A DNA stretch of 63,954 nucleotides, filler included, from Perkinsus olseni (GCA_013115125.1; 4 parts of 4 records of this genome joined end to end with filler, not necessarily neighbours in it); one strand, 5' to 3'; positions 627-63,427 are shown, counted from the first letter of the whole stretch. Notes: generated by a model from the sequence alone, not told the origin. Program-made: numbers and translations.

Positions 627-3600
627 ATGCGCCACGACACCGGCAGCTTCACGACAGGCGAAGCTATCCGGCCTCCAGCGGCCTTCAATGGCTCTGGTAA
701 ATACAAAACACTGTTCGGCCCGCCGTCGGGTGGTAGCGACCCCGCTTGGGTCCAACAGAAGCAAGACGAGCTGACCCTTCTGCATGACAAATATAAACGA
801 CAGTCGAATCCTCGGAAGACAGTTTCTCGCGACGCAGCATGGGAAGAGAAACGTCGGAAGTTCGTTCAACGACGAGGCAACCAGCCGAGGCCCACGTTGG
901 GAGGATCGAACTATCAGCTCAGCGCGAGAGAGGAATGGCAAGACGCCCAGCCAACGACCATGCACGGTAGACCAGGTGATCAACCCAGTCTTGAGGAGCA
1001 CCGGCACAGGAGTCCACACGACAATCGAGGCATCGAGTCCACGGTGAGGAGGACTGACCACAGCCGGGAGGGAAGTCGTCATAGCATACCCGTGGTGAAG
1101 CAACTCGCTGAAATCGCGGAAAGGGACCACAATAAAGGGCAGGTCGGCTTAGTCGATGAAGGAGCTGCCGTTCCCATTACGGAGGCCCACCCCGAGGGTT
1201 CAAACGAGATAAGTCGGGTGAGCCGCAGAGATAATCATACTCATACGCTGGCCGGAATTGGAGAACACGAATGGATAGCAGAGACCGTTAGGCAGCAAGA
1301 GAGAAAGAATTTACGAGAGTATCTCGGGCAACAAACGGGCGGGTCTAAGGTGAGCTCCGCCGATGAATCTTGGATGTGATGTTGATGCATCAGGTAGTCT
1401 CCAAGCGAGCGGAGTCTCCCGAGGGCGCCGTCTTGCCTGGTATAGGTAGTTCTAGGACGGAAGAAGCCGAGAGAAGGAGGAAAGAAATTCAGGAAGACAT
1501 GAGACGCTTTCTTGCCCAGAAACCGCCAGGTGGGGCCAGGCGGGGATAACACTCTTCCAAGTGTGCCGGGGGCCGAGATCAATGCTTCTCGCGTTGAGTG
1601 AACTTCAACGCAGTGCTAACGCCTTTCAACTGTGTTCCGCAGGTCGACAAGGCCATTCTCGCGTTCCTCCGGCTCCGATAACGGAGCTTACCCCAACCGT
1701 TCGGGATAGCATGAGACGGCAGAGCGGGGCTTCAGATGGCCGTCAAGGTGTCGTGCTCTTCCAAAATCTCGATCAAAGATACTTGTTGTGGCTTCTTCAG
1801 CACCAGTCATCCCAGCAGATGAGGGTTGCGCATTGAAAGGCTTGGGGGACGACGATATGAAGAGAAAGGAGGATATACGAAGGCAGCAAAGGAAGGATCT
1901 TGAAGATCACCTCCGTCACGGGTCTCCCGATACCTGTGAGTTGACGGTCACTCTCGGGCCAAAACTGTACAATCTGCCGCCAAATGATGCATGGTTGATA
2001 GTGTCTCGCCGGGTCGCTCGAGCCCGCTCGAGGTCGGAGTCACCCGTCATTCCCGATCTCGACCTGGACCCGAGAGAACAAGAGCTGCGGCTACGGAGGA
2101 AGCGACAACAGGATGAACAGAGGCAGTGGCTGGATGAACAGGTGAGTGGGCTACCAGTGGCGCCCTGCGTTTTCTTGGACTGCAGCGGGCACAGCGTGTG
2201 ACCCTCAGAAATTTCTGAGAGGGTATGCGATCTTTGCTAAGCCCGTTCATGTTCGTTCACCAAGTTAGGGGTCCACGACGTGGACCCTTAACTTGGTGAA
2301 GCTCACTGCGTGAGGTTCAACCTCAAGCAGCTTGCTTGAGGCTGACACTCTCCACAAAATCCGTGGCACAAATCGTGGTCCACCAATGCGTATTATTCTA
2401 TAAATATTCGTAGCGTCGAGTGGATCACCCGAACGAGCTGTCAGAGCCGTCTGAACCGCGTTCCTTCAAACTCGGCCAGAGCCCGGTCACTCGAAATTTG
2501 CGTGAGTATCACCCACGGGCCCACCTCTGGCTAGCAGCAGTGTCTCCAACGCAATGCGAAGAAAGGAGTGGAAATCTGAGGTCAGGCGGAAGCTGAAAAA
2601 GTCTACTAATATGACAGCAAACGGATGCGTAACTAACTAGTACATCATAGTACAGGGAGACAGCGGTTAGTGATGGTGGCCCGTAAGCGAAGATCACTTC
2701 ATTTCTCGAAGTTCAAGACCCTAGTCACTCGAAGGGACGCCGGTTGTCTTATGAAACCCAAGCAAGAGGGCCATGATATTCGGCATCCGACTATCGTCGT
2801 ACTTCAACACGGGTCGTTACACGGCAAGCTCAGAAGACTCATGATAGCGGAACCGGCGAGGCGACGTTGAGCACTTGCACAGTACCAAAGCTAAACTGAC
2901 GCCGGAAGCTGTACCCCTGGGTATCGATCTCCACAGTCCCTCCACCAACGTTCACTCTTGAGGCCGAGAAGTCTTCGATCGACCACGCTAATAAACGGGC
3001 TGGTAGAGAATAGACACCCTCGCTGATGGCCTTCACCTCGGTGCCGCTTATCACCAATAGACCATCGGGGTACTGGTACACCCTTCTGCAACCTCTGACC
3101 TGCCGAATCAGTCGAAACTGGGCTTGTACGATAGTCAAGTCTGCCGATAGCATGTTGCGTATTCTCAACTTTATAGTCCCTCGTTTGCAGTGTTGCCAAG
3201 GGTCCAGTGTGACCATACCGCACCAAACGTGTTGTTCCAAGACCATACTCTCAATGGAAATCTCCAGGACCGATGGTAGGCGATACGCGATGGTCAGAAA
3301 AGTCCATACGTACCACAAGAGAAGGGCCAGTGGTAGTCCTAACAGGAGAGCCCATGTGACCAGATGATGTGCGGGATATCTCCTCGTTGTAGCTTTGAGA
3401 CCACGTGATAATCTGCGAACCCGTGAGGGCTCGTCTGACGCCGGTCTCGACCATCGAAGAAAGCCAGAGGGAGTATCCGAAGCATCATACTCACGAACAG
3501 GCATCTTCATATCGGACTCTTTTCGACAGGGAGAGTGCTAGCGTGACATAGGTCCGGCGCCATCTGTTGGTTGGGCAAGCAAATACTCCCCGCCAGAACG

Positions 3601-6600
3601 GGTGAGATGATAGATATTTTATGTCAGCGAAGTCAAATTCCGTTAGACAGGATGCGAGAGGCGGCATATTTGAGGGGAGGGAGACGGAGTCCGTCAGGCA
3701 GATGGGACATCAGCACACACGTTCCCGTGACGTATTGGCTGTTGTCCCGTGTCGCGGTACTGACTTGGATATCACTTAGGAGAAACTCAACAAGCGGATG
3801 TCTTGTGCCAGAATAAGCCAATACCACTGCCCTGGGACAGAAGTACCTGCAAGTATCGCATGCAGATCATCATACGACGTTGACTTCGTGAGGGGCTCGA
3901 CTTTCGACTCCGTTTTTCGAGCTTCGTGAAAGTAGTGGCAATATCGTGACCATAAGGACTCCTCGAGGACTCCTCGAGGACTACTCGAGGACTTGTCGAT
4001 GGCACTCCTCATTGAAAGCGCCATCGAGTCGGTGGCATCGACAAGTACCCAGAGGCATGTCTGTCGAAGTTGGAGGATCAAAGGTTCATGATCAACCATT
4101 GATCCGCAGTGCGGACGATAGAAGTCCGAATCGGACTGTCCGATCATCGGACGTAGATCGCTTACTATTGTGAATACCTTGATGCTAATCGAACGGTGAT
4201 GCGCGCTACAGGAACAGGAAACAACAGCTTTAACTCAGCAGCTTGGGATGAATGTGCAACCTGTTTTCAGAACAGGCGCCTCCCTACTCCCTCTACGGGT
4301 GGCTCTACCAGGTAGAGGTTGAGGTAGAGTCTACCTCAACATTGCAACCTACGTCTAGCTTTGCGCCAGCCTAGCTTGCATCATCTTCTCGAACCACTTG
4401 TGCTTGCTGCGTCATACCCGCACCATGGTGCTCAAGTGTTCAATCCTTTGGTCAAGCCGTCGGGGGCAGACTACAGACGGTAGCAGTACCCTTGGCGTGC
4501 CCGATCGATCAACTCAGGAAGCTGATATGTACATACTGGAACCCCTAAAGTGCATCCTCGAGGCCATGATATCCTCTAACCTTTAGGGGTTGAAGGAAAT
4601 CTTAGTGCCTTAGCATATTACCCGAATGGTCGTGTGATTGGCTGGCAGCCTACGATTCCAGTCGGCGTAGGTGCGCTGAGCTGAGCCGCAGTCCAATTAC
4701 ATCCGCCGCAAGGCAGGTGGTCCGATGGTGGTAATGGTTATCAAAGGCTTGATGGTTATCAAGCAGTGGCATCACTGGTGCCGCACCAGGGAATCCATGG
4801 TCCTAGTGGAAACAAAAATGTATCGAAAAACTGCGGGGAATAAGATCAGAGCTCTACGAAAAGCGATCTTGTGTATCCTTTCTCCCGACTCTGGCTGCTC
4901 TGTTGATCCGTGAGTCACGGACCGTGACTACTTAAGTGATGATATTATTGCTAACAATGTTCAATAAAAGCACCAATCTAGGCTTCGACATAATGGACCG
5001 GCAACTCCTGCATTTGGCCTCTTCGCCCACCAGGAATATCTTATCAACAACCACACTTTTAGATTGTCATGAGAGCAAAAGCAAAGGAGATCGAGATTGA
5101 GAATAGAAAGCGACAGGAAGCGGCGGAAGAGGCTCGGATCAGAGCTGAGGCAGGTGGGCCACTCTCACGTGGTTTCCGCATGAGCATTCTTAGATCGAAA
5201 ATGAACGGAAAAGAGTGGAAGAAGAGAAGGCAGCTAGGAGAAAGCGGATCATTAACATGCAAACGTTCAATGTAGCAGAAGCAGGGAGCCGAGCTAGGAG
5301 CCGGTAACGTCGTCAGACGAACAAGCTCGATCTCTCATACGGTACTCAGGCCCACATCCAGGTCTCCGTCGCCTGAAGTCGAGCTGGTCCGGCTGGAACC
5401 CCGACAGGGAAAAGTCAAGATGGACGCGGTCTCGCAGTCGTGTGACTCTCTGTTTAAGCAAGATGCCAACAAGAAGCTACCCAATGATGCCGAGAGTAGC
5501 GCCGCTAATGTGCATGCTGGACCCCGAGACTACGGGGGCTCTGTACATCCTATCCAACCAAGCCATTCGAAGCCCTTCAGCGGTGCTGCCTTGGAGACCA
5601 AGGATCGCACCTCAGTATTATTCAACGCCCTCTTCGAGCAACAAAGGAAACTTGGGGAACAGAACGCGGCGATTGACGAGTTGCGGAGGGCTATGGCTGA
5701 GCGCGTAAGTCGCGGATCGGTTTTTCTTACTCCACTGTAGCTCACTCTGCAGGAGACTCAGAAAAGCGCTGGAAACGTACCGTGCGAGCGCGAGAATCCT
5801 ATGCCATCGCAGCATCGAAAGTTGCAAGAGCTGATGGAAATGCTCCTCACGAAGTTGTCGCCTTCAGAGCAACCAAGCCGTGTAAGACTAGCGATCGGGA
5901 TCCGACTGGATATTTATGGCGCATTCCGGTCAATACTCTCTTCCCTTGTAGGAAGCTGGTAAAACTGAAGCGCTAAGCAACCCCAATGAACGGATGAAAG
6001 GGCCGGACGAGACCGATCGGTCATCGCTGGTATGGCCCTAGTCGTGGCACCAGACCTTTGCTGTCAGTCGTTGATTAGGTCAAACCGATACTCAATAAGT
6101 GGGAAGATGTTTTGGAGGCTTTGCCTTACCGGACGAACTCGACAGTACGTGTGCCGTGCTCGAGGAGAACATAATTTCGCTAGACAGGCTCGGCATGGCT
6201 GCACGGGAGGGAACGTGCCGCCGACGAAATCAGCTGGAGGTGTTGGCGGGCCGTTGGCCATCGACGGCGGCTTCGCACCGGATACTAGCCGGAAGAGTAT
6301 TTTCGAGCGCAGCTTGGTTGGGACGCGTATGTGGTTACCGGTCCCTCACCTCCCTGCGGTTCAACAGAACTCCCAAGCGCATCACCCGAGCACTCGTACC
6401 CCACCTAGGGATTGGACACGAGAGAAAACACCGAGGGTTCAGTCCCGATGGGATGGGAGTTCAGGCAGGGCCGCGTCCTCGTACGATCGGCCCGGAACTG
6501 GTGGGAGCTCGATGGTGGATGCCGATTCTTCGAGCGTGGACGGGGAGAAACTTGAGAGGGTCGTGAGGATGATCAAGAAGATGAGAGAAGCTGATAACCT

Positions 6601-7195
6601 CACGATTTCTTCAAGATCCTCTCCTACCGGGTCGGGGCAACACACGCCATCGGAATTGGAGGACGTCTCTCCTCACCGCAGCTCTACGTCTTCAGCTGCT
6701 GCTCCGCTCTCGAAGCAGCCCTCCATCGCATCAGCGGTGCATCGTGACTCCGATCGTGCACGACAAGCTCCACATGTCGGCCCCCGGAAGGACGCGAGGG
6801 AGTCTCCTGACCCTTTTCTACAGACCGTTGTATTGAGCGAGCACCTGGGCGGGCCTCCGACACCCACAATCAGTCCATCAAAATCCTCCTTGTGGTCATC
6901 TACTCTGAACATCAAAGAAGATCTGCTGGAAGCCGTTGACCGAATCTGCGCGGAGTGCGACGCTACAACAGCACACCTGGGTACTGCGTTTGAGGTCGAG
7001 GAGTCCACGAGGGCTCGGGACAAGGATGAGAAAGAAGAGAAGGATGAGCCACCTGCAGCAAGAGTTCGGCCTTTCAAGGAGCTCCACCGACTACTGTCGT
7101 CCCATGGATTGAGCCTGGACGAAGAAGTGATCGACAAGCTGAAGTCAATGACGTCATTGGAGCACAAAACTTGCTCGAGTGGCGCCCTTCTGTAG
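627..7195 (+). CDS. Multi-exon coiled-coil protein, CCDC66/CSPP1-like (centriolar/ciliary); both ends approximate
   Basis: Repeated Q-x-RK-x-L-x-x-(Y/H)L motifs. The exon ending ...RKRQQDEQRQWLDEQ (2141, donor GTGAGT) joins in phase 0 to IVMRAKAKEIEIENRKRQEAAEEARIRAE (acceptor 5062) and then IENERKRVEEEKAARRKR, resembling the CCDC66 domain. Further short-intron exons appear to run into the 6032-7195 ORF. Confidence 0.5.
2839..3510 (-). CDS. Single-pass membrane protein, LEA_2/NDR1-HIN1-like (paralog A), nested in an intron
   Basis: 223-aa ORF: basic N-terminus, TM helix (LVTWALLLGLPLALLLWYVWTFL), then RLP and a beta-rich domain with LRIRN. Clear homology to 7720-8562 (EYDxSDTPSGFLRWSRPA, YRLPSV, VWCGMV). 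Confidence 0.7.
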   Translation of the reverse strand: MKMPVREYDASDTPSGFLRWSRPASDEPSRVRRLSRGLKATTRRYPAHHLVTWALLLGLPLALLLWYVWTFLTIAYRLPSVLEISIESMVLEQHVWCGMVTLDPWQHCKRGTIKLRIRNMLSADLTIVQAQFRLIRQVRGCRRVYQYPDGLLVISGTEVKAISEGVYSLPARLLAWSIEDFSASRVNVGGGTVEIDTQGYSFRRQFSFGTVQVLNVASPVPLS

Positions 7196-7719
7196 CTGAT
7201 CTGTGTTGGCCCTCTTGAACCCATGTGCCGCGTCATTCGTCAAGAGTCTCGCTAATAGCCTGTAAGTGTTGGCTTTCAATGAGGGTTAACAGACGCCAGT
7301 GGAACCTCTAGTGGTGCATTGATGACGCGGTGGAAACTCGCTAGTGAGTCTGGTCAGTGTCCTAGTGGGGGATTTCCGTCTCGGAAAGGTGTTCTGAGCT
7401 TCTTGCGGATCTCTCGCGCGTTTGTCCAGAACTAACAGAGGTGGTGGTCGTCAATGAAAGGGCATGCTGTGCAGCTCTCTACACGCGACTGGATTCGTTA
7501 TCTCGATGATCAGAACAGGTGTCGAGTTCCCTTCTGACAAATTGTTTCTCGGTTTTGGTCGCGTGCTGTGTAAGAAGTGTAGTGGGCAGCAGCTCATCCC
7601 ACCCGCCCCCTGACGACATCCGCTGGCAATTGCCTGAGTATGGTCTGATATATACTGACCGAGCTGTCGTAGTCCGGATAATAATAGCGGTCAGAGTTGC
7701 CAGCATCCAAGGGCCATAA

Positions 7720-8562
7720 TCACTGAAGGATGCTACAACGCAACGCCCGAGCCAGTACAAATTCAAGTTTGAGAAACGCCTCTGTTAACTCGCAGAGATG
7801 CAATCTCACAATGTAAACGGGAGGACAAGCCAATGGTACATGATGGAGGGGGATATTGGGTTGAGTCGCCATACTGGCATGCTTAATGAACATTTCTGGT
7901 TCACTTGGACGAGGGTGTACACGAGCGGCGCACACCATTTTTAGCAAAGTACGGAACCGGTATCCGAGAGCGCGTAACTCAATGTCGATATCAGAAAAGC
8001 TAAAGCTGGAGATCGAGTACTCCTCAAACGTTGTCCATTGTAAATGAACCGGTAAGATGTAAACGCGCTCGCTCATGGCCTTGACCGTGGTGCCATCAAT
8101 AGTCAAGAAACCCTCGGGGACAAAGTGAGCCTTGGTCTTACGGTCTATAAACATGTATCCCAAGGCTAGCTCGGCTTCTACGATGGTTATATCTGCCCAC
8201 AGATCGTTCCGGATTCTCAAGTCTACTGTGCCTCGTGCACAGTACTGCATAGACGGCTCCAAGCTAACCATACCACACCACACACGCCGGTCCAGGGCGA
8301 TCTTCTCGAGCGATATTCCCACTACCGAAGGGAGCCGATATGTGATGGTCAGTAAGGTCCAAAGGTACCATAAACAGAGGGCTAGGGGTATTCCAGATAG
8401 AACAGCCCAAAGCATCATATAACGCATAGGACTCCGAGTTTTAGCTCTAAGATCTTCCAAAACTTTCCGGACCCGTAAGGGCTCGCGCCTCGCCGGTCTC
8501 GACCATCGTAAGAAGCCCGAAGGCGTATCAGATGGATCGTACTCATGAACAGTACACTCCAT
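7720..8562 (-). CDS. Single-pass membrane protein, LEA_2/NDR1-HIN1-like (paralog B); C-terminus uncertain
   Basis: Aligns with the 2839-3510 protein over about 200 aa, with the same TM + RGTxxLRIRN architecture. Confidence 0.7.
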   Translation of the reverse strand: MECTVHEYDPSDTPSGFLRWSRPARREPLRVRKVLEDLRAKTRSPMRYMMLWAVLSGIPLALCLWYLWTLLTITYRLPSVVGISLEKIALDRRVWCGMVSLEPSMQYCARGTVDLRIRNDLWADITIVEAELALGYMFIDRKTKAHFVPEGFLTIDGTTVKAMSERVYILPVHLQWTTFEEYSISSFSFSDIDIELRALGYRFRTLLKMVCAARVHPRPSEPEMFIKHASMATQPNIPLHHVPLACPPVYIVRLHLCELTEAFLKLEFVLARALRCSILQ

Positions 8563-9698
8563 GTGCGGCTTTCAACCGATGAGTTGGCACAATGCCGGTC
8601 TTGAAACAAGACTCTTGTTTGCTGTCTGATCATTCGCGTGTGAAGGAGACAGCGCCGATTGCGCACAACCCACCCGAAGCCACAACGTTCGAACAGTAAT
8701 TGGAATTCTTTCTTCGAGAGCATCGCAATCCCTCATTCCCATTTCAGTATACCAGTCGACATTCTCGATGCACTGGAGGATCTAGAGTGTGTAGCGGAAG
8801 GGTCGTTCTCCCCTACGAAATCGTGCTGTAGACCTGTACATGTTGTTCGGTCACACATCATGATGAACGACGGAGTTTGAGAGCTTGCGCGGAATGTTTT
8901 TGCCGCAAGACGGGGTCGGCATATGACAAAAGGGATATGCGGCTTCAGAGCCCACATGGCATGTCGGTGCAGTGAGTTGTGGCCTACTATCCAAAAGGAG
9001 GCCTCGGGCACTGCGTCTCACACAGGGTCTGCCTGTGCGGGTCCGTCGGGACAAAGGCTTAGTGTGAGTTTATAGTCCAACGCCGGCTCCGCTTTAGACT
9101 CTTGCCAATGTGCACAGTTAGAGACTCTCTGTAACGTTGATACGCAGAGGAGTATGCTACTGAGGAGTATGGGCCACCTCGGCTTATTGCCGCATCGCGA
9201 GCCGAGGTGTCACCTTCTAAAGCGACCTTCTGCGGCCTTGCTCGATGAGAATTCGGATCCGATCCTCAGGACAGTCTCCTGATATTCGAGCATTGTTCAA
9301 GAACAACACTAATGGAGTCATGATGACTTATGGCTCCAGATGTTACGCTAGTTGACGACTTAGTCCTCAACTAGCGTAACATCTGGAGTACCGAAACCGG
9401 TAGAGGACGCGGAAAAGTGTTAGTATTGAGTACATGCTAATAACAGTGTGCCGGATGCTGACGGATGCCGTGCCTCAACTGTTGTGTCTTCGCAGTAGTG
9501 CTACTCACAAGGCAAATGCACCGAGGTAGCGTGTCCCAGCTGTGATGGTGTTTGCGCAGTAGCGTCGGTGTAGACAACAACTCAACGTCGTTGGGGTATG
9601 AACTTTGCGCCGTTACAATCCCAAGAAGAGAACAACGCTGGTCTAGACTTGAAACCTGTATATGAATTTATGGTACGTTAATAATTGTCACGTCGCGG

Positions 9699-11108
9699 CT
9701 ACGTTTCCTTCAACCTCGGCTTGGCCCGTGGACGGAACCGTTTGAGCTTCTTCTCGTCCATCGTTCTTATCAGAAAACCCGTAACTCCCTCGACCAGCAC
9801 AAAAATGGGTATCTAAGTGAGGCAACAGACAGTATATGATGCATGCAGTCGAAAGCTCTTGGCCCGATTGTTGCATCACGAGAGGCAGCCAAAAGATCAG
9901 TGATACTCCAAACAGTCACCGCGGGTCTTAAGCGGGAGTTGGAACTGAAGTCAGCGGTCGCTCACTTTTCCCAGTGTGGTCATGCCCCGCGGCCTAGCGG
10001 CAACGGCCGTCATGATGCATATTGGGAAGAGCATCGAGAAGATTCCGTTGTCGATGAAGCGCGGGAATACTGAGCAAAGCACGGTCGAAGGGAGACCTGA
10101 GAGTGCGCTGGCCTTCTGACGGGCGAACGAGCCACGAGGGTATACCGAAGCCGATAAAGTACGCCCAGTGCCTCTCGATAAATCGGAGACGGACGTGGGA
10201 CTCCCAGCCAAGGTAAACCCAACGGTACTCGAAGCTGTATGTCGATATCTAAGTCCAGCTGTGCAGACTGAAGAAACCGAGTGGCTTTACCAATAGGCAC
10301 ATGCTGACCAGATTGAGGAAGGTCCCGATGTAGGGCACGAAACTCAGCAGCCAGGTTTGCAGCGCGAAGATGATGTTGAGCAGATTCCGCATCAGCGCGT
10401 CCACGATTCGTGATGTCAAAGTAGTCTTGACCCTCGGATCGGAAGGGGAGAAAATCGCGAAGGTCTCGTTGGCGATGTCCTGAGGGAGAAATTCTGTACG
10501 TATCGTCAGCGCCATCGCGACGGCACCGACTCGACCAGTGTAATACGCTGGCCTGATAATCAGGCCACATCAAACTCAATCGAGCGAGGCGCTCTCGATC
10601 ACAACAGCGAAGCGTCGAGAGGGCAGGCGTGTCTTACTTGATGCCAAGCTATGTTGAGGAGATAGCTGAGCGAATAGACGGGGACGATCCACGTGAACTG
10701 AAGAGGTCAGAGCATAAGCACAGCAGCAGGCAAGGATGACCGCAAAAGTCTCTCACCAGATGAAGGAAGTACAACGCTTCGGTCCACTTCTGCATGGACT
10801 GTTCCTCGAAGCCGCTGATCCAACCCACAACCACCATCAGTAGGGGGTTTACGACCTGACAGGTTCATAAGAGACGGGCAGCAGTCGCGGCAGCAGCTGA
10901 CCAGCCTGAAGACTGCAACAGAGCCGAGAAAGATGACACCGTTGAGGATAAAGCACTGCAACCAGCGGACTCGAATCGTGGGTGACTTGAAGAGGAAGAT
11001 CAGACAGAGGTCCATCCGGATGGCATCCTTCAGTCCGAGGAGGGCCAAGGTCCACACTTCCCGTCCAGCCGATTGCACATACTCAGAAAACGATAAGAGA
11101 GGTCCCAT
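9699..11108 (-). CDS. EI24: Etoposide-induced protein 2.4 (EI24) family membrane protein, spliced
   Basis: Motifs LQCFILNGVIF, DIA, SFVPYIG, YSFEYRW, RLRFIERHWAYFIGFG, FSMLFP and last exon IPIFVLV...KET* (TAG 9699-9701). Confidence 0.85.
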
Positions 11109-12004
11109 CAGAAGACTCTCAACCTACCACGACGATGATATTATGAAACTTTGGAACGACTGTTGAGCCCAACGGGCCTCTTTGTGTGATCAGCGTATGA
11201 TGTTTCGACTATTGAGGGTAACTTTCGCGAGGACCGCAGACACCGCACAGACTCGAGACGAATCGATGCTACTGATAAGCCGCGAGGATCGCTCCCCGCT
11301 GGAGATGAATCCCGCATTGTTATTAGTGGCTCACTAACCCTAAGCCTGTATGAGGCCCTCAATCCATCCCCACCCATGCCCGGTGGAGAAGACACGTGAT
11401 ATCAGCGATATCATACTAACTTCACAGGTATTTCGTCATACTGGTAGTTCTGGTTTCGCTGCTCTTCACGAACAGGGAGAATGCATTATCATATGCCAAC
11501 CTCTTATGGGGAGGGTAATATCTTGTCGATTCATCTGATGCGTATTTGGACACCAATAATGGCGTACCATAGTACAGCCATTGGCCTTGAAACCTGAAGG
11601 CCATACTCGATTGGCCGAGACGCTGCCAGCTTCGTAAAAGAACACTAAGAATCCCCACTATCCTCTCCTAGTTCACCCTCAAATAGAAAGCCACAGTATG
11701 CTCAGTGTAAGAGACGATGCCCACCATCTGCGGCAGCAGCAGCAGCATAGCCACCTAGCCACCACCACGGGACCGAAGCCCTCCCCCAAGTGACATCACT
11801 TAACGCGAGGAGTGGTACACCTGGATGATTATTGTGAGAATTGTGCGAAGCGGTTGTGATAAAATACATAAGAACTGGAGAAATGTGGATATGGTAGCAT
11901 AGTAGTGGAGAGAGGAGGAGGAGGAGGAGGAGCAGGAGGAGGAGAAGGTCTATTAATACACGACCTTCGAAGTGATAGTGAAACTCAATTTATTGGTGTT
12001 TGGT

Positions 12005-52433: not shown

Positions 52434-54836
52434 ATGGAGTATCCTCTGTCGTCTGCGAAGGGGGAGGTCGCCCAGCTGACAACTACCATCGACGATTATC
52501 TGCAGCACTTCGAGGACTACGGGATAGTTTCTTGCAGGGATCTCACTAAACCGTCATTGGAGAACATGGATGTGATGAGTCGTGGAAGGCCCTATGAGGT
52601 GAGACTGTTGGTTTGTATGGGTCTCTGGTGACCCATTCTGTCACATCCCGAGATGTTCAGCCCACGGTCAGTTGGAACTTCGAACTGAGCGTGGGCTGAA
52701 CTTCAGCCCCTGAAGGGCTTGACGAATCCATACTCCCTTACCCTTTGGCTGAACCCCTTCAAACTTTGAAGAGGTTCACTAAGACGTTCATGAGCGATCC
52801 AGATCTCATTCACGGTTGGCCTCAGCGCGATTTTGTGCTGTTCACAGATTCTATCAGTTGATGACGACCCCATCAACCAAATGGTGATAGCATCAGTACT
52901 GGAGACAGCAGAGTTCGTTGTGCATCAAGCGATGGACGGGTTTGAAGCGTTGGATTTCATGTCCAGCGCCACCACCCTACCAGACCTTATCCTACTTGAC
53001 GTCATGATGCCTGGTACGTTCCTATCATTGATACGCTTGTCTCGAATAGTCGGCGATATCCCCCCAAACCTCGCTTAACCGCGCGCTAGACACAATTTTG
53101 AGATGCTTTAGCTTCTTCATTACCGAGGAATTTCCTCGAGAATTCCTGGTCTCCCTTTATCGTTCATTTTCCTCGGGGGGAAATTAACGATTGCCTATGC
53201 GCTCTTCACTGAGGAGTCCTCAGGGCTGAGCGGCTACGAGGTCTGCGCTAAACTGAGGGCCGATTACCCTCCTGACCTTCCCATTATAATGATATCCGCT
53301 AAGAACTCAAGTGATGACGTCATCAAGGGTCTTAAGTAGGGTAAACTTCAGAGAAGCTCTGTTGACGAGGTCGCTGCAGGTACAAGTGTAATGACTACGT
53401 CACCAAGCCGTTCGAAAAGTCCGAGCTCCTGGCGAGAATAAACACACAAGTCAAACTCCGTCAAATGGTGAATCGTCAGGTAGGACGGTAGCGGCTTCCA
53501 AGGAGCTGAGGCTGAACTTAGGCAAGACACCGTATGGCAGTCGAGGTCCTGCAAAGGATCTTACCTCCTGCTACCGCCAGGAGAATCATCGGTGGAGTCT
53601 ATGATGACTTCGAGAACTACAGGGAGGTTACCATAGTTACTTGGTACGCTAACTCAACGAACGAATGGCGGCTTCGCGCGCTGATCGCCCTGATCATCAT
53701 AGTCTGATATTCGAGGGGCTTCTAACAGCTTCACCTTCAGCTTCATAATAACTCAAGAAGATAATTGCAACCTCCCTTAGCGACTGCCGCTGAGAGTCTC
53801 AGCCTGAGGCATCGCCCGATGATTGAATCTTTCAGCGTGGTAGAAGGCCTGGACTTGAATGACCCACCGGGGGCGATAGCATCTCTCAATAAGTACTTCA
53901 ATGAATTGGACAATGGGTTGAAGGAGAGGGAGGCTCTACTGAAAATGGAATCATGCGACGATTCCTACTCCTTCATATGCGGACTATCTCCAGAGAACGC
54001 GGCTGACCACACCGTCAGTAAGAGAGTTACTTCATCTTGCTTCCGTGTGAAGCATCAGCACTCAGAAGCTCTCGACTTCGCGCGAGCCATGATTGAACTA
54101 GCCGCTGCGACGGTTACTGGCTTAAGAGTCAGAGTTGGCGTCCACGCTATCAGGGGAATGCTAGGAGGACTAATCCGGACGCTCTGCCCGAGGTGACCTG
54201 CTGCCCCTCCATGATGAGCTCGAACCCCAGTAATGGACACTACAGGCTCTGTAGTACAGAGATAGTCGAGAGCAAATGACCAACCTGAATCTGCATGTTG
54301 CGTGTATGCAAACTTTGCATTGCAAATATCTCCGAACTCGTATGCTGTATTACCTGTACAGTACGCCTGTGGATTCGAAGGTCGGGAATTACCTACAGCG
54401 TCTATCGTATTTTAGAGGAATTATTTTTCCAACTTTTTCACTAGCTTTCAGTGGATGCCTGACTTCAAGCCTTGAAGTTCAACACGATATCTGAAAACTA
54501 TGCAACATGACACTAACCAACGCGCACTCTCAGATTAATGTTGTTCAGTGATGAGGTTGAGGAAGCTCGTCATGCAGCAGTGCGCGGTGTCTCCGGTTGT
54601 ATACATCTCAGTAATAATCACCATCCATGCGAAGGAACGCTGAGTTACGGTCATGTCCGACGGACAGCTGTTCCTCTCAGCTCAAGAAGCTAGGGAGAGT
54701 TACGAGAGACAGAAGGCTCCCCTGTGTGATAATCCACCACCGACTTCCGTTGCTGACGAAGGAATCCGCGCGACTGAAGACATCGAGCAGGCAGATATAA
54801 GCGTGGAAGGCTCCATCAAGCCGCCAAGGGCGGTGT
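52434..54836 (+). CDS. Response-regulator receiver domain + signalling helix + degenerate class III nucleotide cyclase; coiled-coil exons probably continue to about 55.7-56.5 kb
   Basis: RPYE|ILSVDDDPINQ...PDLILLDVMMP|GLSGYEVCAKLR...PIIMISAK...NDYVTKPF; then LQRILPPATARRI, YREVTIVTC, KMESCDDSY, LRVRVGVH, PR|LMLFSDEV, GCIHL. Confidence 0.85.
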
Positions 54837-57800
54837 AGGTTTGTCAGACACCGGGAAAGATGCCAAAGTGTGTTAGCTTACCCATTCGTCAACTGTACGA
54901 GGTACGCGTTGGACCCCCGAGGGAGCAGTGAACATTTTAAGAGGGTGGACTGCGCGGGAAAAGAGCGCGATTCAAGAGGTGATACCAATTGGTGTCAGTG
55001 GCAATCGTAGCCTCGACTGCATCACCATTGGTGATCCACAAACCACAGTTGGTGATGCAGTCCGCCACCAACCACAGTTAGCTGAGGAACGTGGCGAGTA
55101 TACCGTGTACTGCGGGAGAAAGTTTCAGTCGATGCAGTGGAGCGATCGAGATCGCCGTCATCTCGTTCATACAGTACTTGCATTTGCTCCTCGCTGCTAG
55201 CCTGGGGATTTGGTGTTCGGACATAACGTCACATGAGGGAGGTATTGAGATAGCTTCGCCTCAGGAGCTCCTATTGGATCCTTTCGATGGCGACCCGTGA
55301 AGAACACCACCGCAGTGCCGGCTGGAAACTCACATAGTGGGAGGAGAATACAGGCTGACAATACTCGAGATGGGCGTGAAGAGAATGATGTTGCTGAGCT
55401 GAGAGCGCGTGTGCAGCAAGTAGGTTTGCGTCGAGTCTGTGTGCCAATTGAGTTGCCTCTGGATACTACAGTATCTCATAGACAGTCAGACTGACTGACT
55501 CAGTCACTGAGTGGGTCGAATAGCCTGTGTCAGCATTCTCGAAGCCGTGTGTCTCCGCTTCGAATGGTGCGTCCTTGGTCTCAGCTTGAAGGCGAGAACT
55601 CGATTCTCCAAGAAAGTATCAGAATTACCACACAGATGACTTACTGGCAGACGTTAAGCGTAGAAGGTAAGGGGAAGACCAACCAACAGCGTCTCGCACT
55701 CCAGTCATGTTCTTGGGGAATCGACCGCGAAAGGCTTTCGCCGAAAGCAGGATGCATCTGGCATATGACGGCAGTCATCATATGCAATAGTCATCAGAGA
55801 CTGGGACCGCTGGTCTCCTGGTATCAGACCGGGCTCAACGCGGCCTTGTCAATGTCAACGCCTGCCCGAGTATCTTCTGAGAAGGGGAGAAATTAAAGCT
55901 CGATGTCTCTCTCCTTCAGAAGATACGCGTGCTCCGATATGCAGTTCTACACTGCACACAACACTGTCTCACACAGTGAGCACAGTTAGAAACTGAGCTG
56001 CACAGAAGTTCAGCTTTTAAAACTGGCATTGCTGTATATAGTCACGAGCGCCTCACGGCAACGAGCGGTTCGACAGGCCTCGAAAATCAGGGGATTCTTC
56101 GCTCCGCCCAGGACTGAACGACGTCGAGGCAGCTACTCCACCCGCACCTAGAGAACTGGATGAGGTACAGCGAGGGATGAACAGTAGCGTGGCGAGAGAA
56201 GGGCACGGGTACCAGCATCTGAGCTCAAGTTGTTGCTCCCCTTCTTCCCTAGTCTCGGGATCCGCGATGGTTAGAGTCGCCCCTCAGCCACCGCGGTTGA
56301 AAATGTGAGCTGATGCCCGGTAGCTGGTTCAGGTCTGGAGCCTGTCTGAGCGCCTCTGGGGCTCCCGGACTCAAATGGAAGTGGCTTGAAGTGGAGAAAG
56401 ACCTGCGCGCCCGACAGGTGGTCACTTGCTGCGATGACTACTACTCTCCAGTCAGAGACGAAGGGATCCCGATTTCCCTACGTCTCGCATGGCCGGATCG
56501 CACTGAATGATTCACTCCGACTGCTCTCCTCAATCGCTCAGGCGTTACGAACTCCCAAAGAGGGAAGCGAGGCCAAGAAGGTAGCGTGATGGTGTCCTGA
56601 CTGCTGCGCCGAATAGTTTTTACTCAGCTTGTCGGAGACTTTCTGGTATGCTTGGAGGAAGCGTGCGAAGTCTGCGATGATGTCGCGAGCCGAGAGTCAC
56701 CGCAGAGCCGGCGTGAGCCCAATCCGGCTACCCCGTACTTCTCGAATGTGTACTTTTCAATTGCAAAATTGTGAATTGCCGATTACGCTGGCAACCGGCA
56801 ACAACACTGAGACGCGAGTTCGTCAATGCCATAAACTCGCGTCCCTCGTGCTCGCGCGACACTTGCATTGGTTCAGCTCACGCGATAGCATTGCCGTCTG
56901 AAACTCGACCGCTATTAGCGCTGATTATCCGTTGTTCGGATACTATAACGACGTGAACTTCGAGCCACAGCCTGGAGCCTCGAGCTCCTCGATCGCAACC
57001 GCCGGGATCACACTGTGTGATCACGATTCTCGCGTGATGACACATGATTATCATGTGTGTGAATCACAGTGATTCACACACCACAATGCGATTTGATATG
57101 CTCGCTCTTGATTGGATCAGCACAGGTTCAGTGGCTAAACGCGAGGTTCCCTGCCTGGATAAGTGGTCCGATTCGGGGAAGACCCAAAATGAACTTAGCA
57201 GGCTATCGGTGAGGCCCAGCTAGGTTGTACCACTGATCATATGGCGTGAGTCATGCCGACCACTTGACGACGTGAAGTTGATAGACAATCTACGAATCGT
57301 AGACTACGATGTTAGATGAATGACTACCGTAGTCTACGGTAGACTACGATGCCACCCTCTACATAAGGCGTACGATTCTCAGTAGTCTCAGGCTGAACAT
57401 CAGCCGCTCAGAAAAGAGAACGAAGCAAGGAGAGGTCGAGAAGTACTTCAAAATGCATGAGGGTATCTTTCGCTTGCGCTTAGGGCACACGAAGCCGACG
57501 CCTCAGCACCTTAACATAAATCAACTGTCCGATGCTGCGGTAGCCGAGTCAATGAGTGATTTGCAGAGCAAAAATGAGAGGATCAGCGCACAGTGAGTCT
57601 TGATCGAGGAAGTAACGTGAACTCTAACTCGTCTTCCGCAGACTGCCAGAGATCAGGTCGGAGACTTCGGCAATACGGACAAGGTTGTTCTCTCGACATC
57701 CTACTCTCCTCGAACTCGAGGAACACGAAGCGATACTCGAAAAGAGGACACGCCATCTGGAGGCATTATCCGAATTCTCCGGGATACTGTAATGATATTC

Positions 57801-58808
57801 CAATCATGACAGACCCTTGAGAATCGTTGATGATCTCATCACATGTGCCGTGTTTGAATTTCAACGGTCATAGCCTTCTTTTGATAACGCTGCTAATAGC
57901 TTCGAATATTGAGTTTGGATGTCAGGGGTTCAACAGTTACTGATAGTGGCACTGACACGGGGTGTTCAGAGAAATAAACCGGAATGCATTATATTCTCTT
58001 GGTCGAGACCTTTGATATGATCAAATTCTCAAAATTTGAATTGGAGAATTTAAATTTCCCTGGCCAAGCCTTGGCGGCCCGCCAAGGCTGTTTCCAAGGT
58101 GGAACAGTGATCTATGATACCTCTCATTCTCGGCCAGAAAAGGTTCCGCTCAGTTTTCGGCGGCAATGCGGCCGCCGCATGAGAGAGACCGCATGCGTCT
58201 CGTCGTACCCGATGTAGGCATTCTCGCTCGCCCGAAGAGACGAGCGAGCCAGTGTGAGGTCACGCCACTGGGGTGTCACGCAGTCGCAGCATGACGTGTT
58301 AGATCTGTAGTTGACAACGCAACCTCCCCCGACTAGATGAATGGAGCTTAATTAGAACGACCGTCCCGGCCTACGGGGCCGGCGGTTTCAGATATACATG
58401 CGAGTATCTTGGCGAGCGATAATAATGCAATAATAAGGAAGCGCAAACAATAGTAGCAACGGTCATATACTCGCATCGTCGTACCCAACAACGTGAGCGT
58501 TCCCCTGCTACTCCCAGCTCAGCTAGGCTCCTGCCGTTCACGTTCTCTAAAGCGTTTCGCAGCAACGCTACATTAAAATGAAAATTCGGGTGAAATGACT
58601 TCTAGAACAGGGGAACGGAGCATGATGAGCAGTCACATTCGAGCTATTGATAGCTCTGTCGTCCTTCTCGGGCAGCACTGTGCACTGCAGTTAGGACTAA
58701 GATTCTGATCAGCCACTGGCCACCCGCTCCCGACTGGTATTCTTGGATAGCTTTGTTTTTTCCGTCGAAGCTTCTCTTGCTCCCTTCAAGACTGGACATT
58801 GATTGCAA

Positions 58809-60305
58809 ATGAGAAGTCCCCTCTGTGCCACAGCCCAGTGCGCCGGTCCAGCAGCAGCTCCCAGTTCGCAGAGTCCCTGTGTTAATAGGCTCCTTCGGGG
58901 CTGCTCCTTATCCACCATCATGTTGGATCGATCTTTCCTTCGTTCCTGTGAGAGCCATGAAGATGCATTCCTGGCCTCGGTACCGGTCAGCTCAGTCAGT
59001 TTTTTCTTGAGCCATTCGTGGTCTGCTGACGGATTCTGGAAACAGATGGCTCTTTTCATCTGCTGCAGTACTAGTCCCGCCTGTAAGGTCACGTTACTCA
59101 CCTCTTTAATTGCAGCGTATGCTCTCCACTCTCCGGCAGGCGGCATCACAATATCCGACCTGATCGTATTAGTCATTGGTTTTCTATCATTTCTGCTCGC
59201 CCTATTCATTGTTCCGCTATTCAAGCATCGCAATACCATGGTCTTTCTCGATAAATGTTGCATTCCACAGAAGGACCCCATTGTCAAGGCCTATGGTATA
59301 TCGAGGCTAGCCGACAACCTGCATGCATCAGACAAGCTACTCATACTCTGGTCTCCTGATTATCTTGATCGCCTGTGGTGCGTCTACGAGTTGGCAGTCT
59401 TCCTGCGGACGCATGATCTGGATGATGTCATCTTGGTGAATATGGATCACTTCAAGCTCTGTGCAACCCTCATGATTCTGCAGTTCTTCAGTATCCTCGC
59501 TCTAGGTCTCACGGAAGATTACGATCCGAGGTCGAAGCTATATGTCGGGTACGTGCTGGTCATAGCGACTAGTCTCCTGATTGGTCGTGGGGCCTTCGGT
59601 TGCAGCCAGGAGTGGCAGAAGTTCTGTTCTAGAGTGAAGCGTTTCAGCGTTCACAAGGCCAAGTGTTCATCTTCAGCGGACTACACTAACCTCAAGCAAC
59701 TCATAAATGATATGTACGGCTCTGAGACAAAGTTCGAAACGGTCGTCAGAGGCCTCTGGTTGGGTGAGGGCCAAAAGAAACACATTCCATCCTGGCTGTT
59801 CTCTGGGGCATCCCTGAGAGTAATTTCTGCGACCTATGTCCCTCTCATCGTTGGTAATATTGTTAAATTTATCGTCAGCGCAGTGAGAGTGGACGCGATA
59901 CCTGCAGCAAGAGTGACTCCTGCAGGTGAAGCCCTTCAGCCCCTGCCGGGGAAGTTACACGCATTACTGTGGAATTCACGTTGCGCAATTATTCCAGTAA
60001 TGATGTTGTGCTTCCGAGCTCCCTTAATGCTGCTCGTAGGCCATGCGCTGGCTTCTTGTCGGATCTCTGAGAAAGTAGGCAGATGGAGTCGTGGTGTCAT
60101 TTTCGCTCTTCGCTTCTGTGCTTACAATTGCCTAACGCAGATGCTATGCGGCTTGCAAATCTTCTATCATCCACTCCGTTCGCCTTCGATAAGCCGACGG
60201 ACGCATGATGCGCTTTTGTGGACAGCCGGAGTCAGCGTTATTACTGTGGTTTCTTTAATCTTACGCCGGTCGTCCGCGTTCGAACTCCTAAATGATTCAT
60301 TTTAG
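58809..60305 (+). CDS. Intronless multi-pass membrane protein with a TIR-like domain
   Basis: FFLSHSW, a two-TM insertion, VFLDKCCIPQ, SDKLLILWSPDYLDRLWCVYEL, then further TM helices. Confidence 0.75.
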   Translation: MRSPLCATAQCAGPAAAPSSQSPCVNRLLRGCSLSTIMLDRSFLRSCESHEDAFLASVPVSSVSFFLSHSWSADGFWKQMALFICCSTSPACKVTLLTSLIAAYALHSPAGGITISDLIVLVIGFLSFLLALFIVPLFKHRNTMVFLDKCCIPQKDPIVKAYGISRLADNLHASDKLLILWSPDYLDRLWCVYELAVFLRTHDLDDVILVNMDHFKLCATLMILQFFSILALGLTEDYDPRSKLYVGYVLVIATSLLIGRGAFGCSQEWQKFCSRVKRFSVHKAKCSSSADYTNLKQLINDMYGSETKFETVVRGLWLGEGQKKHIPSWLFSGASLRVISATYVPLIVGNIVKFIVSAVRVDAIPAARVTPAGEALQPLPGKLHALLWNSRCAIIPVMMLCFRAPLMLLVGHALASCRISEKVGRWSRGVIFALRFCAYNCLTQMLCGLQIFYHPLRSPSISRRTHDALLWTAGVSVITVVSLILRRSSAFELLNDSF

Positions 60306-60676
60306 CCGCTCGGCTGCTCACGTAAAATTCTTCAAATTTTCACCCATATTAATTCCTTCCATTCATACACCGAAAAGTTTGTCGAGTTTTCCAGTGAGGA
60401 GAGCTGACTGGGCTGCTGATGGGTTCGAAGGAAGCAGTCCTCCGCCAAATCATCGTTCCGCGGCGGCACTAATCATGTAGCCGCCGGGTACTACCCGTAT
60501 TACCGCCAACTCGGTCGAACCGACGAACCGAGCAACCTACGGTCGGAGTAACTAACGCTGCTCACGACACTCGATTCAATATAGCGCTAAGTTTCTATAT
60601 GTTTTGGTACGGAGAAACTCAGCAAGCGGATGCATTGATTAAGGATGAGCCGATACAGGGCAGCTCGACTCGTGTT

Positions 60677-63427
60677 ATGGTATCATCTCCTTCTGCTGAA
60701 CAGCGTAGCTCCTGCATCAACGCTTGCATAGAACGGTTGAAGACCACAGTTTACCAGCAGGGGCGAAGCACTGTCTTTGAAGAAACTCGGCGAGCCGTCC
60801 TGGTGGACACGGTCGCCAACGGAGGCTTCAACCCGGTACCCCCCCCTGCGCACCGCCCAACCTGAGATTTCTTGCAGGGCCGCTGCCTCGCTGTTCTGCA
60901 AGACCAGGGCTTGCTGTCGCAGTATCGTCGTAGATTGGCGTTTGAGATAGATGACCATCAATTCAGAGCGCAAAGAGACGCTAGCTTGGAGCAGAGAGGG
61001 TATAAGGCTGGTGAGCTCAACCCGGGGTGGCGTCGAGTGCTTGAGCGAACGGCGTCGAAGTGAATCATTTGAAATTATTCACGAAAAATCAGACTAGCAA
61101 TTCAATGATCGAATTTTGAAAGAAGTCGCGCTATCGTGCTCTCCGTTGCTCAGAAAAAGACGCCCTGTCCGCAGCCCATCGGAGGTTGAGCGAGATTGTT
61201 CTATCAAACCTGCGGCAGCACTTATCGAAAGTGACCAGAGGTCAGCCCTTCGTCCGAGCACGGGAAGCCCGTACTATGAACAGCACCATAGATGGACGAA
61301 TCGAGATGGGACCTATCATCTCAATGGAGGACATTTACATCGCTTTGGTATCCGCTAGAGGGAATCCAGGAGAAGACGCCGCCTTCAGTGACATGTCGAT
61401 AAGTTTGAAGACACCTCCTTTGTCTGAACTCAGAGAGAGGTGAGTCAAACGCGAGCATGGCCCATGAACTCTTCGAGTCGAGTAAATTTCATTTTGTTGA
61501 ATAAGACAGTTTTCTGCCACCATTCAATGATGGCGGTTCAATGACAATGATGATCATTGTGTCATTGTATGAGAGACATTCTAGTGGAAGAACCCCTTTC
61601 TCCGACAGCAACCCAGTGGATAGAAAGTTTCTTAAGTTTAAATTTACGCAGGCCCTAATTCAATTCTCACCTACAGTTGAGGCCGACAGTCGGCCGCCGA
61701 CCAAGCATGAGTTTAAGGTGTTCAGTATCTTGTTGAACCTCGAAGTATATGTTCGCGGTCCACACCATTTCCCGTGCAAGTTTGACCCGTGGACAGGCAA
61801 GAATGACAATGTCACAAGCAAGTTCGACAATGAACACGCAAGTTGGACACATGTCAAATTCGTTAACACCAAGAGTGTCACTGTCAAGTCGTAGTTTGAC
61901 AAGGGCTAAATCATCACATACAACCAAGGGCAAGTTTGACAAGTGCCAATCCAAGTTTGCCAGCGCAGTATTTCCCTCCCAAAACGTGAGCTCGGCGCCA
62001 TTGCCATTGAGAAGAGCCTCGTCTGAAAAGGCCTCGAGTCTCGCATCTTTTTCAGAACCAGGCTCATTCAGTGTGTGGCATACAGAAGGAATCATACCCT
62101 AGTGACTAGGGCCTAGTCCCATTGAAATCCAGTGGCTGGATTAGACTTGCTGTTTCATTTCGTCTCTCACTCCCTTGCACAGTGTCAAAGAGTTCCTTGC
62201 CAGCTCCTCGCTCGGCGATAAATCAGGGTCCTGTCTGGCAATCGCGCAGGCTGTCGGAGAGCCGGTCTGTATAATCTCATTGTTCCTAGGCACAACTCGT
62301 TACACTCCAAAACTGAATAGAAGCTATCAAGTCACCACGACAGATGACCTGTCACAGATACATATCGTTGAACGGCAAAGATAACATAGACGCTGCTGAC
62401 ATCGATGCAACAGACCGCCTCTCATACGCCTGGGAGGCCCATCAAACGAGAACTTTACAGCGAGAATCCGAGGCTGGAGCGCTGATAGCAAGCGGCGCCG
62501 ATCCAGCCAAGATACGCCGATATCTTCGAGGTAGACGGGAATCTCTCGAGTGAGGACGTCAGGAACCTCCCTTGCAGGTGGCGCGCCATCCCAGTCCAGA
62601 CTAGAACTCTGGGCGTTAGCTCTGGACTCAGCAGTACAGCCTGGTGAACTCGAAGATCTCCACGACGGCGTCATTGCGCAGGAGTGGATAACTGATGATA
62701 TAATTCGGTAGCATTAGAAGATGGCATAGTTGGAGTTGACGTTCATCACAGAGACGACGTGGCGGAAAGGACGGCCGACGGCAACTACTTCCCTTTTGAA
62801 GATCTCATCGAATCGCTCTCTCTGACGCTATCCCGTGATCTGTGGGTCGGGACAAATGCCCGCGCAGCACCACATCAATCCATGTCTCCGGATGACGAGG
62901 AAACGTCCGAGGCTGTGCCGCCCTCCTCTCACGTCCCTTTCGAGGGCTGGGCGTGTCTTGCTTGCCCCTTCGCCTATCTTGCCGAGAGTATCAACCCAAC
63001 ACTCTACGGTGTTTACCGGGCCTTCTACTGTCGGTATTGGGTACGGTTAGTTTCGATAGAGGCGGACATCGACTCGCTACCCTACCTTGCTGGCCTCTGC
63101 GAGAATCTTGTATACGATGTAGCGCCGGAACTGGTCGCCCATTTGCAGTCGATCGAGAGTTCGCCGTCCGTGCTTAAAATTGCTTTTCCGTGGATAATCT
63201 GTGGATTCGTCGGGTACATCCGTCCGATGCAATTGCTACTCCTCTACGACCGCATGATCGCGTATGATCGACTTGAGCTCATTGCCATCTTGGCCGCGGG
63301 TATTATTATATCCCGGAGAGAGGCTCTGATGGGTGCTGAGACTATGGACGAAGTCAGAGACGTATTCTCGAATTTGGATTGCATACCGGTCATACCACTC
63401 CTCCAGAACATCATATTTTCTAACTAA
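60677..63427 (+). CDS. TBC1D19: TBC1 domain family member 19-like (Rab-GAP fold), spliced; start uncertain
   Basis: RLELWALAL, DGNYFPFED, YGVYRAFYCRYWVRL, PELVAHL, LKIAFPWI..GFVGY, QLLLLYDRMIAYDRLELIAILA. Confidence 0.75.

Follow-up and report, generated by a model that had tools for sequence, protein, structure and literature searches.

We analysed a stretch of 63,954 nucleotides (nt) of Perkinsus olseni DNA, hereafter the window, in which four contigs (1-16923, 17024-33938, 34039-50950 and 51051-63954) are joined by runs of N and TTAATTAATTAA spacers and the GC content is about 51%. The window carries a large excess of palindromes whose two arms are separated by exactly one base, and neighbouring palindromes combine into a stereotyped 22-base-pair (bp) pattern built on a single 8-bp word. 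These palindromes are probably the excision scars of a cut-and-paste transposon of the hAT type, which would duplicate 8 bp of its target and, on leaving, close the flanking DNA into hairpins with one unpaired base at the tip. We favour hAT-type excision because an 8-bp duplication brackets inverted copies of the flank that are centred on the complement of the inward base, as published for this kind of footprint.

One-base centres and a fixed unit of 8 bp

An earlier note on this DNA had listed 14 intervals as palindromes with a one-base centre (odd palindromes). Ten of them are exactly that, namely 2256-2300 (arm 22, one mismatch), 4303-4317 (arm 7), 4318-4340 (11), 4907-4921 (7), 30765-30793 (14), 49598-49612 (7), 52655-52701 (23, two mismatches), 53124-53138 (7), 53209-53223 (7) and 54462-54478 (8). 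The remaining four (55483-55512, 57006-57080, 57289-57348 and 62097-62118) are not single palindromes but clusters of overlapping odd ones.

We next counted all maximal perfect inverted repeats with arms of at least 7 nt by the length of their spacer, with 200 dinucleotide shuffles of the window as control. At spacer 1 the window holds 58 such repeats against 4.0±1.9 in the shuffles (maximum 12). The counts for spacers 0 to 12 are 5, 58, 3, 7, 1, 6, 6, 7, 5, 3, 8, 8 and 6, while the shuffle means over these spacers range from 2.9 to 4.0 and the maxima from 8 to 12. The excess over spacers 0, 2 and 3 on which the earlier note had staked its case is therefore real and specific to spacer 1, spacers 0 and 2-12 lying near chance with 1-8 repeats each. 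Fourteen of the spacer-1 palindromes have arms of at least 9 nt, above the 0.24 expected in that note, and palindromes with arms of at least 7 nt occur in all four contigs (14, 8, 4 and 32), where at least three had been claimed. A repeat finder independently placed 1 nt between the arms of the four longest local inverted repeats (I7, I9, I11 and I12). The centre bases of the 58 palindromes (C 19, G 15, A 13, T 11) show no preference, and the palindromes cluster at 4-6 kb and 30-32 kb along the window.

Arm lengths are equally distinctive. Odd palindromes with arms of 5 to 10 nt number 63, 25, 34, 10, 6 and 4, with a mode at exactly 7, and even palindromes (spacer 0) with arms of 5 to 8 nt number 44, 16, 3 and 2, a smooth fall; at arms of at least 7 nt there are 5 even palindromes where 3.5 are expected. 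Three tandem arrays of a self-complementary 8-10-mer plus one base, at 3960-3992, 29308-29329 and 49044-49060 (periods 11, 11 and 9), count as odd palindromes but are equally direct repeats, and could be scars on palindromic targets or products of slippage.

The commonest spacing between neighbouring palindrome centres is 7 nt (12 pairs with arms of at least 5 nt). Palindrome pairs spaced in this way are forward-reverse-forward copies of one short word, and follow a formula that we call the zigzag: an 8-bp target t1..t8 becomes 22 bp reading t1-7, t8', t7'-t2', t1', t2-8, that is, t1-7, the reverse complement of t1-8, and t2-8. We scanned the window for zigzags on words of k=5-13 nt, counting mismatches among the determined letters (14 at k=8), and compared the results with shuffles. 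At k=8 there are 7 perfect zigzags, 15 with up to one mismatch and 32 with up to two, and none in the shuffles. The corresponding counts are 1, 1 and 6 at k=7 (2.0 expected) and 0, 0 and 1 at k=9; none was found at k of at least 10, and k=5 is at background. Broken down by exact number of mismatches from 0 to 3, the k=8 zigzags number 7, 8, 17 and 10, against 0, 0, 0.29 and 2.33 in 100 shuffles, and at four mismatches there is still an excess of about 19, representing decayed copies. A control for the even geometry, three full 8-letter copies (8+8+8) without the one-base trimming, gave no instance in the window.

Most of the seemingly single 15-mers proved to be zigzags with one or two changes in one outer copy, which accounts for the arm-length mode at 7. 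In addition, among 83 palindromes with arms of at least 6 nt, 18 are abutted by a remnant of the second target copy with at least 5 matching letters, against 0.36 expected.

A second class of scar has a different layout, in which two unequal palindromes stand around unrelated filler and are bounded by both copies of the 8-bp word. Complementary centres hold by construction in zigzags; among 15 candidate filler-separated pairs both centres are the complements of t8 and t1 in six, with a chance of 1/16 per pair. At 4303-4340 (target CTCTACCT) a full scar was formed without annealing, the left palindrome (4303-4317) being centred on an A that is the complement of t8 and the right one (4318-4340) on a G that is the complement of t1. 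The full scar at 30754-30820 (target CACGTGAT) includes 16 nt of filler; its left palindrome has a perfect arm of 14 nt (25 nt at 84%) and a centre at 30779 that is the complement of t8 (I12), and on its right a short palindrome centred on the t1 complement at 30813 is followed by the second target copy at 30814-30820. The complex scar at 57006-57080 (target ATCACACA) again has both complements as centres, a T at 57014 for t8 and a T at 57073 for t1, and its 46-nt filler holds further palindromes centred at 57049 and 57068. In the scar at 51313-51358 (target CCTGGAGG) the left palindrome, with a 12-nt arm and one mismatch, is centred on a C that is the t8 complement, and is followed by ACG and a right palindrome with a 9-nt arm and one mismatch. 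Finally, the palindromes centred at 58069 (arm 6) and 58078 (arm 11), at 58062-58089, have the target-copy geometry of GGCCAAGG.

In the scheme that we favour, an element would insert and duplicate the 8-bp target t1..t8. Its excision would seal each flank into a hairpin whose tip is the base that formerly adjoined the element, and host nucleases would open these hairpins away from the tip, at distances of several nt up to about 27 nt. Once unfolded and filled in, each stem would be a palindrome around one central base, which on the left is as a rule the t8 complement and on the right the t1 complement. If both hairpins were opened at least 8 nt from the tip, their 3' tails would be complementary over the 8-bp duplication, could anneal and be filled in, and would yield a product of 22 bp with a net gain of 14 bp; otherwise the ends would join with filler between two unequal palindromes. 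Scars would pile up where they are tolerated, lengthening introns and spacers, and some sites would be hit repeatedly. What the sequences show directly is the geometry, the constant length of 8, the rule for the centre bases, the unscarred alleles of another strain and the position outside coding blocks; the chemistry of the hairpins, their opening far from the tip, the annealing of the duplicated words and the kind of element involved are what we infer.

Strain comparison and position in a host gene

The earlier note had left room for the palindromes being artefacts. We compared contig 4 (51051-63954) with Logan contigs of the public runs X1 and X4 (two studies), X7 and X9. Contigs from X1 and X4, which another assembler had built from the reads, show no difference from the window over 51213-58336, 58461-61822 and 61815-63911. 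Read-based contigs of two studies thus reproduce the window exactly, indicating that the palindromes are real and were not created in its assembly.

Run X7 bears the same species label but contains only about 0.23 of the sampled words, which corresponds by rule of thumb to about 5% divergence. It carries unscarred 8-bp sites at three scars of the window. At the first, X7 skips 51319-51349 (31 nt; joint 51318>51350, with 6 letters fitting both sides), leaving a single CCTGGAGG. At the second, one X7 contig skips 57010-57075 (joint 57009/57076) and retains a single ATCACACA where the window has a composite scar of 66 nt. At the third, 53202-53223, X7 has a single target (joint 53122>53217, with 30 letters between), and the window has a zigzag plus one later substitution. 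The other X7 contig at 57.0 kb has 21 different letters that form, together with the flanks, a perfect zigzag on a neighbouring word. As we read these letters, the zigzag lies about 10 bp from the window's scar and is an independent event in that lineage. The scars thus vary among strains that share a species label, and certain places were hit repeatedly.

Three further stretches, 52641-52726 (86 nt), 55911-55949 and 55969-56004, are skipped or replaced in X7, which has 45 extra letters at 57281/57282. Two other differences are of another kind. At 63672, X7 has 17 extra letters resembling a diverged direct duplication of the window sequence that follows; no palindrome is involved, and the difference is a common tandem duplication or deletion. 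The 197 nt at 58294-58490 are absent from X7, where 5 letters at the joint (ACGTG) fit either side; there is neither an 8-bp duplication nor any obvious terminal inverted repeat, and the core at 58327-58423 is multi-copy (depth up to about 1700 against about 90), its other copies differing at 14 of 97 letters. This segment could be a small dispersed repeat or a mobile element of another kind.

The scars of contig 4 lie mostly within a multi-exon cyclase/response-regulator-like gene (51396-62890, + strand), in its long gaps between coding blocks. Masks based on open reading frames (ORFs) are too permissive to classify sites, and we used homologue-based blocks, for contig 4 only: mapping the P. 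olseni homologues P0005-P0009 by tblastn gave 25 conserved coding blocks, which together take up 3081 nt (27%) of the gene's span. Of the gene's 32 palindromes with arms of at least 7 nt, 31 lie outside these blocks, although 8.6 would be expected inside at random. The single one inside, at 55028, may be due to chance, and the same holds for the two-mismatch zigzag that starts at 55021 in a conserved exon and spans this position. Eight gaps of 38-67 nt between coding blocks contain no palindrome at all, and every non-exonic one falls in a gap of 162-3145 nt. The placement in long introns claimed earlier accordingly holds for the cyclase-like gene. Three palindrome-bearing gaps are shorter in X7, by 31, 86 and 52-66 nt, so that in this gene the scars add directly to intron length. 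Over the whole window, palindromes are likewise under-represented in ORFs of at least 150 amino acids (aa), with 7 of 58 inside against 17.3 expected.

In X9, presumed to be an RNA run, contig 4 is covered at length only at 58749-60357, apart from some repeats. This stretch holds a 500-aa ORF (58803-60305, + strand) with a weak, below-threshold match to TIR_2, and lies inside a 3.1-kb gap of the cyclase-like gene; the ORF may be a nested gene, or the guide homologue may be a fused model.

Excision weighed against other processes

Flank-hairpin chemistry is known for the hAT superfamily, including Ac/Ds and Hermes, and work on Hermes traces the one-base centre to a first nick placed one base inside the flank. 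The excision mechanism itself is textbook for hAT elements. Their target duplications measure 8 bp, and it is the flanking DNA that folds into the hairpin (PMC5499845). For Ac/Ds, the published account describes hairpins of the flank whose tip is one base and which enzymes of the host open off-centre; arms reach 20 nt in budding yeast, and most joints use microhomology (PMC5873905). The arms in the window span 3-27 nt. Ac/Ds footprints in plants, Saccharomyces cerevisiae and Candida albicans resemble the scars in the 8-bp duplication on both sides, the palindromic P-nucleotide tracts centred on one base and the joining by microhomology. Features of such footprints recur here one after another. 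Two 8-bp target copies bound the scar, also around filler at 4303-4340, 30754-30820 and 57006-57080; each tract has a one-base centre complementary to the base that adjoined the element, with an exception at 51349; and an allele with a single unscarred target exists in X7 at 51318/51350, 57009/57076 and 53202-53223. The scars differ from those of Ac/Ds in that a single 22-bp product is the commonest recognisable class, and that they are natural, occur about once per kb and come with the element unseen.

Target choice points the same way in part. Among 31 inferred targets, A7 occurs in 18 and T2 in 9; symmetrised, T2/A7 reaches 27 of 62 and is the commonest base, and there is no TA at positions 4-5. 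The Ac-type hAT consensus is nTnnnnAn. The Buster-type consensus is nnnTAnnn (PMC3499496). The inferred targets thus appear to lean to the Ac type, though only partly.

Several observations weigh against hAT-type excision. A Pfam scan of 30 of the window's 45 ORFs of at least 140 aa detected no transposase domain, and no intact element combining a perfect 8-bp duplication with 10 of 12 matching terminal inverted-repeat bases was found in the window. An occupied allele was not seen either. The target preference is lopsided, A7 being present in 18/31 but T2 in only 9/31. The right centre of the 51313-51358 scar, at 51349, is the original base and not its complement. This breaks the rule that the other scars usually follow, although a hairpin with a one-base tip could still produce it if nicked on the opposite side. 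At the longest palindromes (centres 2278 and 9361) a second target copy was not clearly found. X1 and X4 may represent the assembled strain, and their agreement with the window then excludes an assembler artefact without supplying an independent strain; the ancestral state of the unscarred alleles was inferred without an outgroup. Finally, no footprints known to us come anywhere near the density seen here, which is about one scar in each kb and in some introns one every 200-300 bp: the 64 kb hold about 31 zigzags and roughly as many other scars, and more when decayed copies are included.

Two leads towards the element itself were discarded. A relaxed search returned a single candidate pair, at 2763-7217, which is about what chance gives, and a 31-nt similarity between 43796 and 54237, considered as an empty site, has flanks that do not align.

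Among the alternatives, the one closest to our reading keeps the same kind of excision scar and changes the enzyme to a Mutator-like or other transposon with 8-bp duplications, or to a domesticated host transposase or nuclease that cuts with an 8-bp stagger and forms flank hairpins. The failure to see a hAT transposase in the ORFs scanned and the only partial T2/A7 preference would suit it, as would the 8-10-bp duplications and flank hairpins of Mutator-like elements (MULEs; PMC5499845). We nevertheless consider it unlikely. The hairpin of the Mutator-like Muta1 is 43+43 nt with no additional base at the tip, and in yeast this element excises precisely in more than 90% of cases (PMC5499845), whereas the one-base centre is universal here; this comparison is with Muta1 alone, and other MULEs could differ. 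A one-base centre complementary to the neighbouring base is described for Ac/Ds (PMC5873905). A likeness also exists to the P nucleotides of V(D)J coding joints made by RAG, and to Transib, where a flank hairpin opened off-centre and filled in gives a palindrome. There a base is linked to its own partner when the hairpin closes, leaving no central base, and Transib duplications are 5 bp long. RAG or Transib chemistry, like that of Muta1, would lead one to expect even palindromes. In the window, by contrast, even palindromes are at chance (5 against 3.5), the zigzag scan at k=5 does not rise above background, and the duplicated word has 8 bp.

An origin without any transposon, through polymerase template switching (in repair synthesis of the snap-back or theta type, or where a stalled fork gives rise to a small inverted triplication), seems still less probable. 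Template switching is known to yield forward-reverse-forward triplications and templated inverted insertions, and some sites with long filler holding more palindromes, such as 57023-57068, would fit it. DUP-TRP/INV-DUP triplications and short template-switch mutations likewise consist of local forward-reverse-forward copies, but are variable in length and junctions, whereas here we found a fixed 8-bp unit, the one-base centre rule and a target preference. Template switching predicts neither the fixed unit of 8 nor the strict one-base centre, nor the target-base preference, nor the same 8-bp direct duplication around unequal palindromes with unrelated filler. The earlier note had proposed that hairpin-opening excision or snap-back repair synthesis expands non-coding DNA. 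Its first half is supported by the 8-bp geometry, the centre bases, the unscarred alleles and the confinement to long introns and spacers; the second half is not needed, as snap-back synthesis leaves the fixed 8-bp direct duplication unexplained.

Selection for hairpins in RNA or DNA, for example to draw the two ends of a long intron together where the spliceosome is accustomed to a length of about 45 nt, is highly improbable. The presence of palindromes in long gaps between coding blocks and their absence from the 38-67-nt gaps is what such selection would give. Yet the palindromes share no common sequence, vary in presence between strains of one species label, and include stacked and partly decayed copies; 7-nt arms with a one-base loop would not bridge the ends of an intron; and the same structures occur in stretches not assignable to any gene (introns and intergenic DNA being classed on contig 4 only). 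The related suggestion of the earlier note, that hairpins are retained to help a short-intron spliceosome, found no support, the sites differing between strains and looking like neutral scars. Nor are the palindromes known RNA genes, since Rfam (at gathering thresholds) and ARAGORN gave no match in the whole window. Introner elements of Amoebophrya, a related alveolate, are also transposon-linked repeats shaping introns, but they come in families, with inverted repeats of 8-20 nt placed at either end of the intron and direct repeats of 3-5 nt (PMC7789003), whereas the arms here abut with one base between them, are specific in sequence to each site and accompany an 8-bp duplication.

A fold-back artefact of library or assembly can be practically dismissed: enzymatic-fragmentation libraries do produce errors at odd-palindrome centres (PMC6941819), but such errors alter the centre of existing palindromes and do not create them, read-based contigs of two studies match the window exactly, and the diverged strain has its own scars obeying the same rule.

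Individual scars, surrounding sequence and significance

Seven zigzags are perfect. The one at 4907-4928 (target TCCGTGAC, centres 4914 and 4921) has 0 mismatches in 14 letters; that at 4123-4144 (target AGTCCGAT) is followed by a third palindrome, so that the whole covers 4123-4152 with centres at 4130, 4137 and 4145; and that at 31172-31193 (target AGCCCTAG) again has no mismatch. In contig 4, the zigzag at 51487-51508 (target GCTCGCAC) lies in the 954-nt gap after coding block 51396-51479, that at 55727-55748 (target GCGAAAGC) lies outside the conserved coding blocks, and that at 57289-57310 (target TCTACGAT) carries stacked palindromes out to 57350 (centres 57328, 57333 and 57338), with a third t2-8 copy at 57344-57350. 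The k=8 scan supplied the last, at 62097-62118 (target CCCTAGTC).

Eight zigzags have a single mismatch. Those at 4021-4042 (target CCATCGAC), 21345-21366 (CTTTGCTA), 54306-54327 (ATGCAAAG) and 61681-61702 (GGCCGACT) came from the k=8 scan. The zigzag at 30319-30340 (TCTGAGAG) has centres at 30326 and 30333, that at 53789-53810 (GCTGAGAC) sits in the 162-nt gap 53675-53836, and that in the interval 55483-55512 (CAGTCAGT) is joined there by overlapping palindromes centred at 55499 and 55505. The zigzag at 52694-52715 (GGCTGAAG) lies inside the right arm of a long palindrome at 52652-52704 and within the 86 nt that X7 skips.

With two mismatches, the zigzag at 53202-53223 (target CTCCTCAG) is the one that adds 14 nt to the window relative to the single target in X7. 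Another covers 2352-2373 (22 bp), and further 22-bp zigzags of this grade in the k=8 scan start at 4768, 8598, 30864, 31878, 32141, 49591, 52002, 54240, 54463, 55021, 58159, 62010, 62339 and 63454.

Three palindromes stand out by their length. The longest (9334-9388; I7) has an arm of 27 nt with one mismatch around centre 9361, and beside it no more than 2 nt can be made out as a second copy of the target. The one centred at 2278 (I11), with an arm of 22 nt and one mismatch, opens a stretch at 2256-2340 that continues with palindromes centred at 2318 and 2331. The third (52652-52704; I9) has an arm of 26 nt at 88% around centre 52678 and belongs to the 86 nt skipped by X7.

As to gene content, the closest named relatives of an aspartyl-protease ORF in the window are in P. 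olseni, at 61-92% identity. The exons of the cyclase/response-regulator-like gene, in which the ORF at 53765-54196 matches the Pfam family Guanylate_cyc, show 72-78% identity to P. olseni over the query ORF, and single tblastn segments against the P. olseni homologues reach 100%.

Several contig ends are made of repeats, (ACT)n at 17024-17095, (ACA)n at 34039-34110 and a 27-nt coding-like tandem repeat at 50804-50950, and the contigs therefore probably break at repeats. Contig 4 starts with a low-complexity C-rich run with GGG islands (51068-51211), perhaps an artefact of the assembly's end or a repeat close to a telomere; it was passed over as a repeat in the read comparison, and the X1 and X4 contigs begin only at 51213. 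The segment at 61762-61900 has a very high copy number (depth about 4000 against about 90, with 15-30 contigs per run) and is made up of a recurring CAAGTTTGAC-like motif, which probably is a coding repeat in a gene family on the minus strand. X7 has a joint between opposite strands at 61890/61966. A motif resembling the T-arm of tRNA (GGTTCGATCC...) occurs three times (17768-17787, 20085-20104 and 20902-20921), once followed by CCA, and the copies may be tRNA-derived repeats, ARAGORN having found no tRNA gene in the window. In Perkinsus marinus, Dada transposons that target tRNA genes are reported (PMC3706591).

A search of the full-text literature, supplements lying outside it, brought up no description of palindromes or footprints of this kind for Perkinsus. 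Nor did the literature search find a natural genome with scars this frequent, with one dominant 22-bp product and with a tie to intron length. It is conceivable, although we would not presume it, that the long introns and spacers of Perkinsus are largely built of stacked excision scars, with hairpins opened unusually far from the tip, at least 14 bp of palindromic DNA added per excision and hot spots that renew themselves. If this were true, the scar process would be a leading source of indels between strains and of growth in intron length, and past cut-and-paste transposition could be read from it as from a fossil record, which is missing from other genomes.

DNA transposons usually leave next to no visible trace when they excise, their scars being a few bases long, whereas the scars described here are long, stereotyped and directly countable. 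They would allow past cut-and-paste activity, target preference and donor-site repair to be measured in a protist whose DNA repair has been little studied, and they offer a concrete route by which genes with short introns may gain long, strain-variable ones. For annotation and population genetics of Perkinsus, a parasite of oysters and clams, the scar sites offer predictable indel hot spots.

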